From IMG/VR virus record IMGVR_UViG_3300012952_000063, positions 1 through 32,805 of that record: a DNA stretch of 32,805 nt; one strand, given 5' to 3'. This stretch comes from a virus. Its lineage: Duplodnaviria; Caudoviricetes. Position 1 is the stretch's first letter. Each line of letters opens with the position of its first letter. The translations under genes were made by a program, and so were the position numbers. Under the pieces are notes generated by a model. The model did no database searches, had not been told where the DNA came from, and was given only the letters and a program-made list of their open reading frames with translations. This document shows, one piece after another, positions 2,754 through 10,018 of this stretch.

Positions 2754-3575
2754 TTATGCATCCCAAAGGGTTGCTTTATCTCCTCTTACGACCATACTTG
2801 TTCTAAATGGGAATCCATTTTCTTTAGTATATTCTACATCTGGGCCAGGATGTCTATGTGTAATTGCACCATTCATAATGACTAATCGATTTGGTTTATA
2901 TTTTACTCTACCAATTTCATAATCCTCTGCATTTTCTGGAATACCATTATATGAATGGTCATGATATTCACCATTGTACATTATTAAGTCACCACCCCAA
3001 TTATCTTCCCATCTTTCTTGGTCATAGTATAGGAATGTTAAATTGTTTAGACATGAATCATCTAATCCTGTGTCTTCATGAATAGTTCCATCTTGTCCAA
3101 TAGTTTGTCCATTAAATCCACAATATTGAAAATAATTCCAATCAAATTTAAAATCTTGTCTTAGTTTATGTATAAACCAATCTATCATAGGTTCTCTATA
3201 ACCTACATTATTAACACGAAATACATCCTTCTTCCATTCTGATTGTTTCATCCATCTTTTATTTTTTCTATGATATGACTCATAATGGTCTTGTATTGCT
3301 GTATTGTTGTGCCAACTATTTTTTTCCTCACCTACATTATGATATATTGATTCACCCCAATACAAATGTTGCATTTCATTATTACGAATTACTCTATTAC
3401 TTCTACCCCAGTTAACAGATGAATTTCTCCAATTTCTCCAACTCCACCAAATTGGAGGCGTAAGATAATTATCAAATACCCATACTTTTTGGAAAGGTAA
3501 TTTATCAATAGGTTTTGGTTTTTGCAGATATTCTATATTGAGAGGATGCATTAACCATTCGTAATGCATAGACAC
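2754..3575 (-). CDS. 2OG-Fe(II) oxygenase, prolyl-4-hydroxylase-like (2OG-FeII_Oxy_3 type)
   Basis: NGQT..QDGTIHED (HxD), LYY...WEDNWGGDL, YKPNRLVIMNGAITH (distal His) and FRTS (2OG-binding Arg). GTG start overlaps the upstream TAG. Confidence 0.85.
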   Translation of the reverse strand: MSMHYEWLMHPLNIEYLQKPKPIDKLPFQKVWVFDNYLTPPIWWSWRNWRNSSVNWGRSNRVIRNNEMQHLYWGESIYHNVGEEKNSWHNNTAIQDHYESYHRKNKRWMKQSEWKKDVFRVNNVGYREPMIDWFIHKLRQDFKFDWNYFQYCGFNGQTIGQDGTIHEDTGLDDSCLNNLTFLYYDQERWEDNWGGDLIMYNGEYHDHSYNGIPENAEDYEIGRVKYKPNRLVIMNGAITHRHPGPDVEYTKENGFPFRTSMVVRGDKATLWDA

Positions 3576-4213
3576 TATACAGCCCTCTTGTCCTCACCTA
3601 AAGAATCTTGTCCACCATTAACATCGAAAGTATCTGATTTAGTTTCAAATCTATCATCTGACCAATGAGTTTCAGTAAACTCATCCTGTGGTGGTGGTTC
3701 TGGTAATTGATTTAGATAAGTATCAAAGTCTTGCAAATCTCCATCAAGAGTTGCATTTAATTCTTCACATATTCTATATGCAGTACCAACTAAAAAATCA
3801 TTCCAGTCTAAGAATCTTCTTGCAATTTGTCTTCTAGGGTCATTAGAACCTTCTCTAGATGCAATAAGAATTTCAGTCATATTATCAAATTTGAAAAAAC
3901 CTAATCTTTCAAATCCAATTTCTCTTCGATTTTTTACTGACTCTTGAATATCATCTGAATATTGTTTTGTCATTGTGAGTTCCAAAGGTGGTTCACAAAG
4001 TTTAATATATTCTTCAATTTCTGCAATATTTTCCTCAGATAACTTTTCTACTTTTCGATTAAGTTCGTATTCGTAAGAATCATCATATGGTATATAAAAC
4101 ATAAAGTCATAATCAAAACCAAAAGAAGGTTTATCTGCTTTATCATAATTCCAACGAAGTCCTCTTTCGTTAGTTATATGTAAAACATTGTCGTGGTCAT
4201 ATACTAATAACAT
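3575..4213 (-). CDS. Acidic hypothetical protein, probable tail-fibre assembly chaperone
   Basis: GGAG RBS. The C-terminal half (FDNMTEILIAS..SNDP..QIARRFLDWND....YRICEEL...YLNQLP) resembles the helical phage tail-assembly chaperone pattern. It lies immediately downstream of the fibre genes. Confidence 0.45.
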   Translation of the reverse strand: MLLVYDHDNVLHITNERGLRWNYDKADKPSFGFDYDFMFYIPYDDSYEYELNRKVEKLSEENIAEIEEYIKLCEPPLELTMTKQYSDDIQESVKNRREIGFERLGFFKFDNMTEILIASREGSNDPRRQIARRFLDWNDFLVGTAYRICEELNATLDGDLQDFDTYLNQLPEPPPQDEFTETHWSDDRFETKSDTFDVNGGQDSLGEDKRAV

Positions 4214-4250: not shown

Positions 4251-5936
4251 CTAAGGCCAAGGTTTATTCAAATCACCATCCCATGTAGATACTGGTCTAG
4301 TCGAAGGTCGAGTAGATGGTCTAGTACTTGGTCTAGTTGAAGGTCTCGTTGCTGGACGAGTTTGTGTCACCTCATAAGAAGTTGGTCTACTAATAGTCTG
4401 TTCAAATGATGAAGGTCTACTAATTGTTTGTTCAAAACTTGTAGGTCTCGGAGTTTGGAAATTAGCAGGTCTATTAATAGTTTGTTCATAAGAAGTAGGT
4501 CTACTATTTTGTAACTGAGCAGGTCTATTAATAGTCTGTTCATAAGAAGTAGGTCTATTAATAGTTTGTTCATAAGAAGTAGGTCTAGGTATTGTCACTT
4601 CATAAGAAGTTGGTCTAGGTATCGTTTGTTCATAACTTGTAGGTCTACTACCTTGAGTCTGATAATACTGAGGTCTACCTATAGTCTGTTCATAAGAAGT
4701 AGGTCTAGGTATTGTCTGTTGATAACTAGTAGGTCTAGGTATTGTCACTTCATAAGAAGTTGGTCTAGGTTGCTGATAGTTAGTCGGTCTAGGTATCGTC
4801 TGCTGATAGTTATAACTAGGTGGTCTATAGTTTTGTATCTGTGTATTATAACTAGGTGGTCTATAGTTTTGTATCTGTGTATTATAACTAGTAGGTCTAG
4901 GTATCGTCTGTTGATAGTTATAACTTGGTGGTCTATAGTTTTGTATCTGATAATTTTGAGGGCCAGGGTTGAAAGGCCCATCTGGTTGATAGATTGGATT
5001 AAATGATGGACTTGGTACTAATGGGTTAAATGGTGTTAACTGTGCATTAGGTGATTGAACTTGAGTTGCAGCTGCACCAAATTTTGGATTAGCTGCAGTA
5101 TAAACTTGCACTTGAAAAGCTCCTGGCCTAAATCCTGTAGTTTGGAAATATTGTGGTCTATAACCTGTTGCTTGTCCTTGATAATTAGCAGGTCTATTAA
5201 TAGTTCCTTGAGTTTGAAAATATTGTGGTCTATAAGCAGTTCCTTGAGTTTGAAAATATTGTGGTCTATAACCTGTTGCTTGTCCTTGATAATTAGCAGG
5301 TCTAGAAGCTTGTAACTGGCCAGGTCTAGCTATCGTTTGTTCATACTGATTAGGTCTGTTAATTGTAACTTGATAATTAGCAGGTCTATTAATCGTTTGT
5401 TCATAGTTAGCAGGTCTAAAATTCTGTATTTGAAAGTTTGCTGGTCTGTTAATAGTTACTTCATAACTATTTGGTCTGTTAATAGTTTGTTCATATTGGT
5501 TTGGTCTGTTAATAGTAACCTCATAAGATGAAGGTCTATTAATAGTCACCTCATAACTTGTAGGACGAGGTGTCTGGAAATTTGCTGGTCTATTAATTGT
5601 AACTTCATACGATGTAGGTCTACTATTCTGCAATTGAGCAGGTCTGTTAATAGTTTGTTCGTATGTTGTAGGTCTATTAATAGTTACTTCATAACTATTT
5701 GGTCTATTAATAGTAACCTCATAGGGTTGTTGATAAGACTGTTGAAATGGTTGTTGAAATGGTTGTTGAAATGTCTGTTGAAAAGGTTGTTGCACCTGTA
5801 TAGTTCCAGTCTGGAATTCCCATCCAGTTGGAGTCTTTCTTTTTACATCAACTACTTTTTTCCAGCCAGATGGAGTCTTGACTCTCCATCCATTGGTGTC
5901 ATTCCATCCTGCTGGAGTTTTTACTTTTGAACTCAT
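4251..5936 (-). CDS. 561-aa Gln/Thr/Pro/Arg/Tyr-rich mirror-repeat protein, probable distal fibre or appendage
   Basis: GAGG RBS. N-terminal 3x KTPxGW, 40 units of 8-12 aa ending in RP, tetrapeptide repeats at both ends and a 55-aa core. Sits directly after the 1349-aa fibre gene. Confidence 0.85.
   Translation of the reverse strand: MSSKVKTPAGWNDTNGWRVKTPSGWKKVVDVKRKTPTGWEFQTGTIQVQQPFQQTFQQPFQQPFQQSYQQPYEVTINRPNSYEVTINRPTTYEQTINRPAQLQNSRPTSYEVTINRPANFQTPRPTSYEVTINRPSSYEVTINRPNQYEQTINRPNSYEVTINRPANFQIQNFRPANYEQTINRPANYQVTINRPNQYEQTIARPGQLQASRPANYQGQATGYRPQYFQTQGTAYRPQYFQTQGTINRPANYQGQATGYRPQYFQTTGFRPGAFQVQVYTAANPKFGAAATQVQSPNAQLTPFNPLVPSPSFNPIYQPDGPFNPGPQNYQIQNYRPPSYNYQQTIPRPTSYNTQIQNYRPPSYNTQIQNYRPPSYNYQQTIPRPTNYQQPRPTSYEVTIPRPTSYQQTIPRPTSYEQTIGRPQYYQTQGSRPTSYEQTIPRPTSYEVTIPRPTSYEQTINRPTSYEQTINRPAQLQNSRPTSYEQTINRPANFQTPRPTSFEQTISRPSSFEQTISRPTSYEVTQTRPATRPSTRPSTRPSTRPSTRPVSTWDGDLNKPWP
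4293..5789 (-). repeat. Coding tandem-repeat array (12/24/30/36-bp units) in two arms: 5124-5789 and 4293-4958
   Basis: Recurrent ggtct(a/g) (Arg-Pro) every 24-36 bp on the + strand. Exact 51-bp duplicate at 5146-5196 and 5254-5304. Confidence 0.95.
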
Positions 5937-5968: not shown

Positions 5969-8900
5969 CTATGAGTATGTTATCCAGATATCACCTACTG
6001 CTCCATCCGAACCACCTGGCGCAGAAGAATGTATGAATACATTTCTCATTGCCTTAGCACTTGCACCAATTGTTGTATAACTTGTTGTTGCAGCTCCTGT
6101 GAAAGCAGATGTTCCACTTACTGCTAAACTACTTAATGTACCAACACTTGTAATATTAGTTTGAGCTGCAGTTTGAATTGTACCTGTTACATTACCAACT
6201 AAGTTACCAGTGATATTACCACTTGAATTAATTGATGATGCCGCAACATTTGCAGCTACAAAATCTGCAGCTGTTAATGATAAATCACCAGTTGAAGAAC
6301 CTGTTGCAGTTGTTGTTGCAACTACAAATTTATCTGCACTTTCATCCCAACCTATAAATCCATTGTTACCTGTTGAACCTCTTTCTAGTATAAGACCCAA
6401 GTCATTACTGTTTGAACCAGTATTACCAGAACCAAGTTCTATTAATGCATCTTCAATAGTAGTGTTTGTTGAACTGTTAGTTACTGTTGAACCATTAACT
6501 GTTAGGTTACCAGAAATTACAACATTACCACTTGCAGTAACATCTGTTGCAGCTATATCTGCAAAAGTTACATCACTAGTTGTTGCAACATCCTGTCCAA
6601 TACTAATTGCAGGCTCCCATCCTTCACCAGCACTACCACTTACAGTAACACCAGTTCCACCAGTAACATTGTCTACATAGTTTCCAGAAGTTCCAGAACC
6701 TAATGCAACTGTTCCTACTACTAAGTCTATTGTATTATCTGCATCTTGATATGTTGCAGTAATACCTGTCTCAGTATTTGAACTAAACATTGCACCTACT
6801 GTGTCTGATACTGCCTCTGCAAAGTTTGATACTCCACTAGAAGTAATACTAATATCTACATTAGATGCACTTGTTACTCTACCTTTTGAATCTACTGCTA
6901 CTTGAGCAACACTATCTGCATCACCATAAGTTGCAGCTGATACACCAGAGTTTGCAAGTGTAATTGGTAATGCAACATTACCTGTTCCATCAAATGATTG
7001 TGATGAGTCTGTAGTTGCATCCCCTGTTACTGTAAAGTTTCTTGAAGTTGCAAGTGCAGTTGCAGTTGCAGCGTTACCAGTTGTACTTCCAGAAGAACCA
7101 GATACATTACCTGTAACATTTGCAACCAATGTACCTACTGTATATCCTGTTGCAGTTGTATTAACTGTTGTTGAAGGTACTGTTTGTGTATCTGCAAATA
7201 ATCTAAATGTATTATCTGTAGATGCATCAAAGAATAAACCTGCGTATTTTGTAGTACTTGACTCTACATACTTACCATAGAAACCAAAGTCTGTTGCATT
7301 TCCAGAGTTTGCATTTGTTAATCCTGTAAAGTTTGCATCGGATACTGTTGAACCTGTTTGTGTTGTTGTACCACTAACTACCAAGTTACCTGTAACTGTT
7401 AAGTCATTTGAAATTGTTACATCACTTGGTAATCCATATGTAATTGTTCCAGAATTTTCTACAACATCTACTTCGTTTGATGTTCCAGCAAAAGTTAAAG
7501 TACCACCTAATGATACTGGACTTGTATTTGAACCATCGGAAACTGTTATACTTGAATTTGAAAGTTTACTGTTTGCAATTGAACCAGATAACATTGCATT
7601 GTCTACTGAACCAGCTGCAATTGTTAATGCAATACTAGTATTACCTAGGTCTGTCATTGTACCAGAACCAGTCACATCTCCTGTTAGAGATATAGTTGGG
7701 TCATTAACATTAAAGTCTAAAGTACCATCTGAGTCATCATAGGTGACTGAGATACCATTTTCTGTGTTAGACGATACCATTCCACCTACAACATCTTGTA
7801 CTCTTTCTGTAGTATGGTAAAGGTTACTTGACCCTTCGGATAAGTTGTCTGTGTTAAATCCAGAAATACTTGTTACTAAATCGATAGTTCCATCACTATC
7901 TTCATAAGTTGCAGTGATACCTGTTTCAGTGTTTGAACTGAACATTGCTCCTACAGTATCTTGAACTACTTCTGTAAGGTCTATGTTTGCAGAACCATCG
8001 AATGAAACACCATGAATTGTTCTTGCAGTTTCTAATGCAGTTGCAGTTGCAGCGTTACCTGTTGTATCTTGGTTAAGTGTTCCAACTGTAAAATCTAAAG
8101 TACCATCTGAATCATCATATGCAACTGTAATACCACTTTCGGTATTAGATGTTACCATTGCACCTACGATATCTTCTACAGACTCAGTAAGGTCTGTAAT
8201 AGTTGATGCAGTTGTACTTACTACTAAATCGATTGTACCATCTGAATCTTGATATGTTGCACCAACACCTGTTTCAGTATTACCAGAGAACATTGCACCA
8301 ACAATGTCTTGTACTCTTTCTGCATTTACTGTTACATCACCAGAAGATACAGTAAAGTCTGTTCCATCAAATGATGCAATACCTTTGTTTGTTTCTGTTG
8401 CATCTTCTACAGATATAGTTGCAGTTGAACCTTCACTCGGTGTATGAGATACATCAATACCTTCACCAGCAGATATATCTAATAGATAATTACCAGTTGT
8501 ATCTGTACCTAATGCAACTGAGTCAGCTGCAATAGTTGATGCAATTGATACATTACCAGAACCATCAAATGAAACTGAACCAGTAACATCTCCTGTTAAA
8601 GAGATTGTTCTTGCATTCATTAATTGAGAAGCTGTACTTGCATTACCTTCTAGGTCTGCCAACAATGTTGATTGTGAATGACCAGTTCCAGAAGTATCTA
8701 CTGTAGTTGTAGGTTCTGATTGGTTACCATGGAATAATCTAAATTTACTTGATTCAGATGCATCCCATAATAGTCCTGCGTATTTTGTAGTTGAACCTTC
8801 AACATACTGACCATACAAACCAAAGTCTGTTGCATTTGCAGCGTTGTCTTTTGCAACTTTAACTGAACCATCTGTAACTTGTAATGTAGAAGATGATACT

Positions 8901-10018
8901 GTAGTTGTACTTCCTTGTACTGTAAGGTTACCAGATAGTGTTAGGTCAACTGCACTTGCATTTCCTGTAACTGTTAAATTGTTTCCAATAGTTACATTGT
9001 CTGGTAATCCTACTGTCACTGTTGCAGTTTCAGAACCAGAACCAGATACTTCAATTTCATTTGAAGTTCCAGAAATTCCAGAAACATAGTTTCCTGTTGT
9101 GTCTGTTCCTAATGCAACACTGTTAGCTGCAATAGTTGTACTAATAGATGTATTTCCTAGGTCTGTCATTGTTGCAGAACCAGTTACATCTCCTGTCAAT
9201 GAAATTGTTGGGTCATTGACATTGAAATCTAAAGTACCATCTGAGTCATCATATGTGACACTAATACCACTTTCGGTATTAGATGATACCATTCCACCTA
9301 CAACATCTTGTACTCTTTCTGTTGTATGATATTGATTTGTTCCTTCTGGTACTAATGTTGTACTTGATGGTGTTCCTACAATAGCAACATTACCCATTCC
9401 ACTATGGTTTGCACAATAGTAGTATAATGGGTTTAAACAGTCTTGTGCTAAACCTATTTCTACATATGCACCTGCTGAACCAGCAGTTCCTACTTTATTG
9501 TAAACTTTATATAATGTAGATGCAATCTCTGAACCACCACCATGAGTACCATCACTTGTTGTGGAGAATCTTAAAGGATGTGATGCATTACTATTATCTG
9601 ATTGGTCAAATCTATAAACTATACCCTTTGCCAACTTAAGGATATACTGTGAAGTACCATCAATAACAAAGTAACCACCACTAACTGTAACTGTAACTGG
9701 ATAATAATATGGATTTGTTCCAGCAATATTTTGTTCTACTGCAAGGTCAATAGTTCCATCACTATCTTCATAAGCTGCAGTTATATTTGTTTCAGTATTG
9801 GAACTAAACATAGCTCCCACTGTATCTTGTATGAATTCTGCACCTACTGTTGCACTAAATGTACCAGATGAATCATCATATGAAAATGATATACCTGTAT
9901 GTGAACCAGCAGCGAACAGACTTGAAATCTGGTCTTGTATCGCTTCAATTGCACCAGTAGAGTCTAATTCTCCAGATGCATTTAAAAGGTCTGCAAGATA
10001 TCTTGCTTTAGTTGGCAT
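5969..10018 (-). CDS. Long modular tail fibre protein (1349 aa) with a cupredoxin-like insert
   Basis: Gly/Ser/Thr-rich. Eight copies of the ExxQDxVGAMxSxNTExGIxxxYxDSDGTxDx module, TARTI-type fibre motifs, HPLRF...YYYCANHSGMG, and C-terminal SAPGGSDGAVGDIWITY. AGGAG RBS and an upstream late promoter. Confidence 0.85.
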   Translation of the reverse strand: MPTKARYLADLLNASGELDSTGAIEAIQDQISSLFAAGSHTGISFSYDDSSGTFSATVGAEFIQDTVGAMFSSNTETNITAAYEDSDGTIDLAVEQNIAGTNPYYYPVTVTVSGGYFVIDGTSQYILKLAKGIVYRFDQSDNSNASHPLRFSTTSDGTHGGGSEIASTLYKVYNKVGTAGSAGAYVEIGLAQDCLNPLYYYCANHSGMGNVAIVGTPSSTTLVPEGTNQYHTTERVQDVVGGMVSSNTESGISVTYDDSDGTLDFNVNDPTISLTGDVTGSATMTDLGNTSISTTIAANSVALGTDTTGNYVSGISGTSNEIEVSGSGSETATVTVGLPDNVTIGNNLTVTGNASAVDLTLSGNLTVQGSTTTVSSSTLQVTDGSVKVAKDNAANATDFGLYGQYVEGSTTKYAGLLWDASESSKFRLFHGNQSEPTTTVDTSGTGHSQSTLLADLEGNASTASQLMNARTISLTGDVTGSVSFDGSGNVSIASTIAADSVALGTDTTGNYLLDISAGEGIDVSHTPSEGSTATISVEDATETNKGIASFDGTDFTVSSGDVTVNAERVQDIVGAMFSGNTETGVGATYQDSDGTIDLVVSTTASTITDLTESVEDIVGAMVTSNTESGITVAYDDSDGTLDFTVGTLNQDTTGNAATATALETARTIHGVSFDGSANIDLTEVVQDTVGAMFSSNTETGITATYEDSDGTIDLVTSISGFNTDNLSEGSSNLYHTTERVQDVVGGMVSSNTENGISVTYDDSDGTLDFNVNDPTISLTGDVTGSGTMTDLGNTSIALTIAAGSVDNAMLSGSIANSKLSNSSITVSDGSNTSPVSLGGTLTFAGTSNEVDVVENSGTITYGLPSDVTISNDLTVTGNLVVSGTTTQTGSTVSDANFTGLTNANSGNATDFGFYGKYVESSTTKYAGLFFDASTDNTFRLFADTQTVPSTTVNTTATGYTVGTLVANVTGNVSGSSGSTTGNAATATALATSRNFTVTGDATTDSSQSFDGTGNVALPITLANSGVSAATYGDADSVAQVAVDSKGRVTSASNVDISITSSGVSNFAEAVSDTVGAMFSSNTETGITATYQDADNTIDLVVGTVALGSGTSGNYVDNVTGGTGVTVSGSAGEGWEPAISIGQDVATTSDVTFADIAATDVTASGNVVISGNLTVNGSTVTNSSTNTTIEDALIELGSGNTGSNSNDLGLILERGSTGNNGFIGWDESADKFVVATTTATGSSTGDLSLTAADFVAANVAASSINSSGNITGNLVGNVTGTIQTAAQTNITSVGTLSSLAVSGTSAFTGAATTSYTTIGASAKAMRNVFIHSSAPGGSDGAVGDIWITYS

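Follow-up and report, generated by a model that had tools for sequence, protein, structure and literature searches.

A mirror-repeat protein at the end of the tail-fibre block of marine T4-like phages has complementary arms that probably pair along a long hairpin

Among described systems, the needle of T4 gp37 (D10-D11) is close in layout to the protein treated here. It is a homotrimer in which a tip (residues 932–959) is inserted between the two halves of a stem (882–931 and 960–1009), with about 50 non-repetitive residues per strand; His residues hold iron, and receptors are bound at the turn (PMC6957217). In Salmonella phage S16, a single gp38 adhesin (PDB 6F45) caps the trimeric gp37 fibre by placing three Trp-bearing elements, one every 120 degrees, into three pockets, and combines a three-helix-bundle attachment with a beta-helix and a polyglycine sandwich (PMC6851490). 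Staphylococcal FnBP repeats bind fibronectin type I modules as a tandem beta-zipper, in which strands are added per module in a set order (PMC7480013). The present analysis concerns an open reading frame (ORF) of 561 amino acids (aa) at positions 4251–5936 (minus strand) of the viral record IMGVR_UViG_3300012952_000063, of which the whole 32.8-kb stretch was analysed (hereafter the window). The minus-strand gene run of the window encodes T4-like baseplate wedge proteins and tail fibres, and the ORF is the last gene of this T4-like tail-fibre block.

Like the gp37 needle, the 561-aa protein has a nested out-and-back layout at a distal fibre end, read here from sequence symmetry, covariation and a low-confidence structural model. 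In contrast to gp37, its arms of about 220 residues are built from modular repeats with a pairing code, natural two-gene forms occur, a single copy is predicted, and the His-bound iron of the gp37 stem has no counterpart in the window protein, which contains 0 His. Neither gp37 homology nor a D10 collar domain was found in Pfam, PHROGs, NCBIfam or PDB sequence searches. With gp38 the protein shares the position of its gene, separate and directly downstream of the distal fibre gene, and, as far as prediction goes, three Trp-bearing cap motifs that would contact three fibre ends. Unlike gp38, its cap is a hairpin-type K-T-P-x-G-W repeat and its body would be a long mirror-paired rod. Where gp38 has a three-helix bundle, the cap model places strands in residues 2–41, with a predicted local distance difference test score (pLDDT) near 50 only. 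Polyglycine-sandwich motifs were not found in the protein, which has 20 Gly in 561 aa and no glycine runs, and neither the whole protein nor the cap matched the GP38 family. The tandem beta-zipper is similar in that linear repeats add beta-strands module by module, but there disordered repeats bind folded host domains, whereas here two linear phage arms complement each other and co-evolve. Literature searches for a mirror-coded architecture, with most subscription papers outside their scope, returned no description.

The protein is laid out as follows, with the arms cut into units after each RP:

4251..5936, minus strand: ORF of the mirror-repeat fibre-tip protein, 561 aa; relatives at 42–92% identity, no family above cut-off
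5793..5936, minus strand: N-terminal cap, residues 1–48, with three K-T-P-x-G-W hairpin motifs; conserved in all three families described below and predicted to dock on the fibre trimer end
5730..5792, minus strand: tract of five QQP(F/Y) 4-mers, residues 49–69, opposite the STRP tract; the corresponding RP-faces-QQ rule runs through whole arms in L185, a member of the third family
5124..5729, minus strand: left (outgoing) arm, residues 70–271, 20 units, 202 aa
4959..5123, minus strand: central tip, residues 272–326, 55 aa; its sequence and length vary (29–61 aa in the centres of relatives), whereas a P-K-(F/Y)-G motif is conserved
4353..4958, minus strand: right (returning) arm, residues 327–528, 20 units, 202 aa
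4293..4352, minus strand: tract of five (S/A)TRP units, residues 529–548
4251..4292, minus strand: C-terminal W-D-G...W-P tail, residues 549–561 (13 aa), plus stop; it ends the second gene in the split family
5562..5639, minus strand: self-complementary 8-10-8 block, left copy, residues 100–125; 62 of 78 nucleotides (nt) identical to the right copy
4443..4520, minus strand: self-complementary 8-10-8 block, right copy, residues 473–498, in the same orientation as the left copy

The unit lengths of the 20 + 20 RP-ended units mirror each other exactly about the 55-aa centre (13 pairs of 10, four of 12 and three of 8 residues); with this composition given, a mirrored order would arise by chance once in 2,713,200 arrangements. 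The mirror feature as a whole spans residues 50–548. The initial annotation had proposed that facing units are of different types and pair by constant rules, and its rules hold throughout the window protein: xQLQxSRP stands opposite xN(F/Y)QxPRP in 3 of 3 cases, QY(F/Y)QTxG opposite QIQN(Y/F) in 4 of 4, one of them being the pair within the 8x10 run where the arms exchange roles, and ANYQGQATGYRP opposite PSYNYQQTIPRP in 2 of 2, while xx(Y/F)(E/Q)(V/Q)T units pair mutually, with generic 10-mers facing generic 10-mers in 11 of 11 pairs. Beyond the arms, five QxxF/Y 4-mers face five (S/A)TRP 4-mers and continue the arm register outward; this tract is 4-periodic and fixes no register by itself. 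The 8-10-8 block indeed occurs in the same orientation in both arms and is self-complementary. The class rules were satisfied by 20 of 20 pairs in the real order, whereas 200,000 shuffles of unit order averaged 7.2 and never exceeded 17; for the window alone, with unit lengths held fixed, the shuffle gave P=0.002. At the DNA level, the longest inverted match in the gene is 12 nt, which rules out a DNA palindrome as the origin of the mirror, and the two copies of the 8-10-8 block use an identical codon at 13 of 25 same-residue positions. The symmetry is therefore a property of the protein and not of the DNA. The code is degenerate, since generic 10-mers make up 11 of the 20 pairs in the window protein, and the register is thus probably set by sparse marker units together with finer residue rules rather than by every unit.

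For the comparison with homologues, 101 loci yielded 77 complete proteins including that of the window, 48 of them distinct. Twenty-five loci were set aside as partial or because the start pattern was missed (two of them, L033 and L052, proved complete on inspection by eye), and one locus identical to the window was given no separate count. Mirror symmetry is present in 40 of the 48 distinct full-length proteins, which display 23 different unit-length patterns and, across the one-gene family, arms of 191–231 residues. In the 40 symmetric proteins, the class rules are followed by 749 of 778 facing pairs; in slid or parallel registers the share is 23–47%. All 103 pairs of 8-mers are of the L/F type and all 105 pairs of 12-mers of the N/G type, both in both orientations; homotypic L/L, F/F, N/N, G/G and G10/G10 pairs number zero and I10/I10 pairs two. 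Taking one protein per pattern, the mirror register accounts for 431 of 451 pairs, one-unit slides for 202 or 203 of 428 and the parallel register for 102 of 451. The literal patterns of the initial annotation offer a cleaner test, the classes being post hoc: in 22 other representatives the xQLQxSRP rule holds in 19 of 20 cases and the QY(F/Y)QTxG rule in 18 of 25, and in all seven misses of the latter the partner is QIQNH instead of QIQN(Y/F). Covariation, which had been suggested as a check, was seen among relatives with the same pattern, where class changes affected both arms 18 times and one arm twice, both of the latter being units left unassigned by the classifier. One subfamily has paired 51-aa inserts at three different mirrored positions that move together. 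In L033 (4001–5575), bulged pairs of 12/13, 28/29 and 20/21 residues occur, and its RP-free 8-mer sub-units keep the TQG-faces-IQN rule. We take the family-wide pairing code to be real as judged from these sequences. What had been claimed of it, that it fixes the register of a long hairpin, is supported by the conservation of the rules in homologues, the lack of which would have refuted it, although probably not every unit takes part in fixing the register; physical pairing of the arms and a preference for cognate units we infer.

Generic 10-mers are not interchangeable. At their position 5, 216 unique pairs comprise 189 V/Q, 24 Q/Q and 0 V/V, a count that leaves out the outermost pair, which in the window is V/V. 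Heterotypic V/Q pairs number 194 of 214 against a maximum of 146 in within-protein shuffles. The residue following the proline covaries with its mirror counterpart (T/A, S/T, P/Q, G/T), with a mutual information of 1.30 bits against a shuffle maximum of 0.15. Of all couplings, the five strongest have position sums of n or n+2, which is what residues directly or diagonally adjacent on the same face of a twisted antiparallel ribbon should give; covariation leaves the choice between the registers n and n+2 undecided, and the AlphaFold2 model described below gives n. His-x-His motifs, present in 12 of the 40 symmetric proteins, lie opposite another His-x-His at the n+2 offset in 30 of 35 cases, which suggests putative cross-strand metal sites. 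Carriers include L034, L035, L036, L041, L074 and L092 as well as L015, L081 and L086; the window protein has none. Within the arms of the window protein, 58 of 61 prolines fall on one parity, and Ile, Val, Arg and most Tyr and Phe on the other.

A profile search against 1.84 billion representatives returned mostly low-complexity matches, but two matches sharing the cap (among 17 of 150 listed matches that were read) led to two sister families with 85 further loci, a split family (L102–L181) and a third family (L182–L186). Members of the split family (e.g. L120:2986–4573 and L102:3001–5626) have the same cap and tail and a different repeat alphabet distributed over two genes: repeats are present in both, together with the cap and a variable C-terminal head in gene A and with the W-D-G...W-P tail in gene B. 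Both gene orders occur, and the codebook differs from that of the window protein. With B reversed, at least 90% of its prolines stand opposite prolines of A in 27 of 37 distinct complete pairs, compared with 31 of 1324 non-cognate combinations, these 31 being mostly close relatives. In the third family (e.g. L185:3001–4242), a single chain consists of an RP arm and a QQ arm, extending the 4-mer rule of the window; RP faces QQ in 19 of 19 cases in L185, 16 of 23 in L182 and 14 of 21 in the truncated L186. Its axis lies inside G-P-K-G and a central domain is lacking. L185-type proteins are the shortest and simplest candidates for structural work. In all three families, the preceding gene encodes a fibre whose C-terminal motif is shared, and a relative of the 212-aa gene described below lies nearby. 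A small 95-aa gene is sometimes located between genes A and B, and two split-family loci (L103 and L109) lie about 9 kb apart on one contig.

Structure prediction gave an unusable AlphaFold2 model from the single sequence (mean pLDDT 33). With 34 sequences the mean was 40, reaching 52–66 only around the tip; in this low-confidence model the arm strands mirror at i+j=597 with proline opposite proline, a value read from the secondary-structure string rather than from contacts and not independent of covariation. Fold searches with the alignment-based model retrieved nothing meaningful in PDB (Foldseek), BFVD or VIA-align (best Z 2.6), the model being too weak for these blanks to indicate a new fold. 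Prediction of the attachment involved the gene upstream:

5969..10018, minus strand: upstream 1349-aa tail-fibre gene, with PHROGs tail-fibre matches
5972–6151, minus strand: conserved C-terminal end of the 1349-aa fibre, the docking site according to the complex prediction; end motif common to all three families

A complex of one cap with three fibre ends was predicted with a score of 0.89, against 0.07 for the best of 3 controls. The mark applied, which 116 of the 157 solved complexes and 2 of the 215 mismatched pairs in the calibration attained, is only roughly applicable here, as the job used its own alignments and was unlike the calibration. Contact agreement between runs was at least 94% and partner pLDDT at least 82. 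In the model, the single cap is contacted by all three fibre chains through equivalent residues, and its first and second Lys motifs each lie against the conserved Gly-Asp of a different chain. Sequence searches of PDB retrieved no like complex; the score is a prediction and not a measurement, and may reflect memorisation by the predictor. One cap is thus predicted to occupy a three-chain fibre end, i.e. a single copy per fibre, which favours a single two-stranded hairpin mounted like gp38 over a trimer of the gp37 type.

Mirrored lengths, class rules, residue rules, concerted change and their persistence across two genes are direct observations. As the best explanation we propose, with a probability of about 0.7, a tip protein whose complementary, reversed arms zip into a long antiparallel two-stranded beta-ribbon, a single copy of which is docked by its cap. 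The chain would run out along the left arm, turn at the central tip, likely the receptor-facing end, and zip back along the right arm; cap and tail would meet at the rod base. The strands would be punctuated by prolines, and facing prolines (i+j=597) would interrupt the ribbon, with matched unit lengths maintaining the phase both of the prolines and of the in/out alternation. Heterotypic pairing of long with short side chains (V/Q, T/A, Tyr or Phe versus Gly or Asn) would favour the native over a slipped register. A single molecule would cap the trimeric end of the upstream fibre via its N-terminal cap, and the rod would carry the variable tip (in the split family, the head that varies) further out towards the host surface. 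With the textbook strand rise, such a rod would measure up to about 70 nm if fully extended and less if coiled.

Several points weigh against this explanation. The unit classes were drawn after inspection of the data, and the relatives are not independent. Eight of the 48 proteins are asymmetric; six of these are at least 97.6% exact matches to a symmetric sibling, with repeat-sized deletions or one insertion, and may represent assembly collapse or recent slippage, but L053 and L089 have no close symmetric sibling. Ten of the 37 split pairs lie below 90% proline match, and L182 follows the RP-faces-QQ rule in only 16 of its 23 cases. A confident rod model was not obtained, the alignment being only partly in register with many rows off, and the docking job covered one cap only and is silent on bundling of the rod. 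Finally, aromatic and aliphatic residues lie mostly on one strand face, which would be exposed in a lone flat ribbon, so that coiling or bundling must be assumed.

This one-sided hydrophobic face also speaks for an unlikely alternative, in which the arms pair out and back but three chains are bundled, as in the T4 gp37 stem, to form a six-stranded needle whose shared core would take up the hydrophobic faces and occasional His-x-His motifs. The His-x-His motifs of 12 of the 40 proteins would suit such a core, the two coupling registers could correspond to two neighbours in a barrel, and gp37 itself has an out-and-back layout (PMC6957217). On the other hand, one three-motif cap is predicted to occupy all three fibre chains, the window protein is without His, the 58 prolines on one parity would presumably block edge sheet growth, and no collar domain or gp37 similarity was found. 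That the code instead joins arms of different molecules, as domain-swapped dimers or end-to-end chains, appears improbable: the arms of the split family do match across separate chains, and sequence covariation cannot distinguish cis from trans, but an axis within a short turn-like motif (29-aa centres, L185) suits a tight intramolecular turn. Hardly better, and ranked just below it, is a mirror register in a non-beta geometry, e.g. an extended polyproline-like two-chain helix; 77 of the 561 residues are proline and model confidence is low, but nearly all units are even in length with a strict two-residue alternation, and the predicted elements are strands. We practically dismiss the mirror as a by-product of DNA duplication or assembly without protein pairing, because, despite exact direct DNA repeats of up to 51 nt and collapsed variants in the collections, inverted DNA repeats do not exceed 12 nt, partners differ in sequence, the mirror holds across two genes in either order, two other DNA runs tile the gene with long difference-free pieces, and split pairs, concerted class changes and the register comparison contradict it.

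If the two-stranded ribbon is correct, these phages would possess a protein architecture in which a legible complementarity code spells out the register, and natural compensatory examples of it would number in the hundreds. Ready rules could be taken from it for long beta-ribbons and for orthogonal zippers of two chains, which are poorly modelled by present predictors, and it would represent a new type of fibre-tip extension in abundant marine T4-like phages, with a variable tip that likely sets host range. We see about an even chance that it amounts to a programmable polypeptide duplex, with strands of some 200 or more residues, several alphabets (three families), one chain or two genes, a free-standing single rod, optional His-x-His metal staples, and cognate units recombinable like DNA strands. 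The way in which two tracts far apart, or two separate genes, evolve in concert would then be a tractable evolutionary question.

The gene order is the 1349-aa fibre gene, the fibre-tip ORF, a 212-aa gene and several genes resembling 2-oxoglutarate (2OG)-Fe(II) oxygenases:

3575..4213, minus strand: 212-aa gene of no known family, candidate assembly chaperone; near all three fibre-tip families, its counterparts in L120 and L182 sharing 30% and 33% identity with it

The product of the 212-aa gene is a candidate assembly chaperone of the fibre-tip protein. In L022 and L023 this neighbour is replaced just downstream by another gene, whose putative product resembles, by eye, a secreted outer-membrane beta-barrel protein. 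The 2OG-Fe(II) oxygenase-like genes at 221–931 and 2754–3575 lie just downstream of a protein with 77 prolines, which their products might modify.

Database searches beyond the families above revealed little about the fibre-tip protein. No family in Pfam, PHROGs or NCBIfam scored above cut-off for the 561-aa protein, Pfam matches to keratin, extensin and cementoin being driven by composition, and no relative emerged from PDB when the sequence of the whole protein, of the cap or of the fibre end was searched. Word-index protein searches matched only a chimeric record and short fragments; the chimera, P0001, fuses the first 70 residues of the fibre-tip protein to a peptidase M16-like sequence. 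Lactobacillus phages gave the only matches among cultured phage records, all weak and of low complexity, and ESM Atlas matches were limited to viral clusters without names. The model of one of these, a 509-aa cluster with an intein/Hint domain in 48% of its members, aligns to residues 2–450 with a template modelling (TM) score of 0.42–0.46 and is regarded as a lead only.

Public runs containing the window stretch are marine metagenomes, with at least half of its words in 14 of the 24 listed. A promoter scan performed no better than on shuffles. Contigs from RNA runs cover parts of the gene and derive from a related strain; they cannot demonstrate transcription. Contigs of two of these runs, from one study (X16, X15), each skip 36 nt (window 4873–4908 and 5183–5218). 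The skips lie on separate contigs, one per arm, at roughly mirrored 12-mer positions, and could reflect a related strain with one unit pair fewer.
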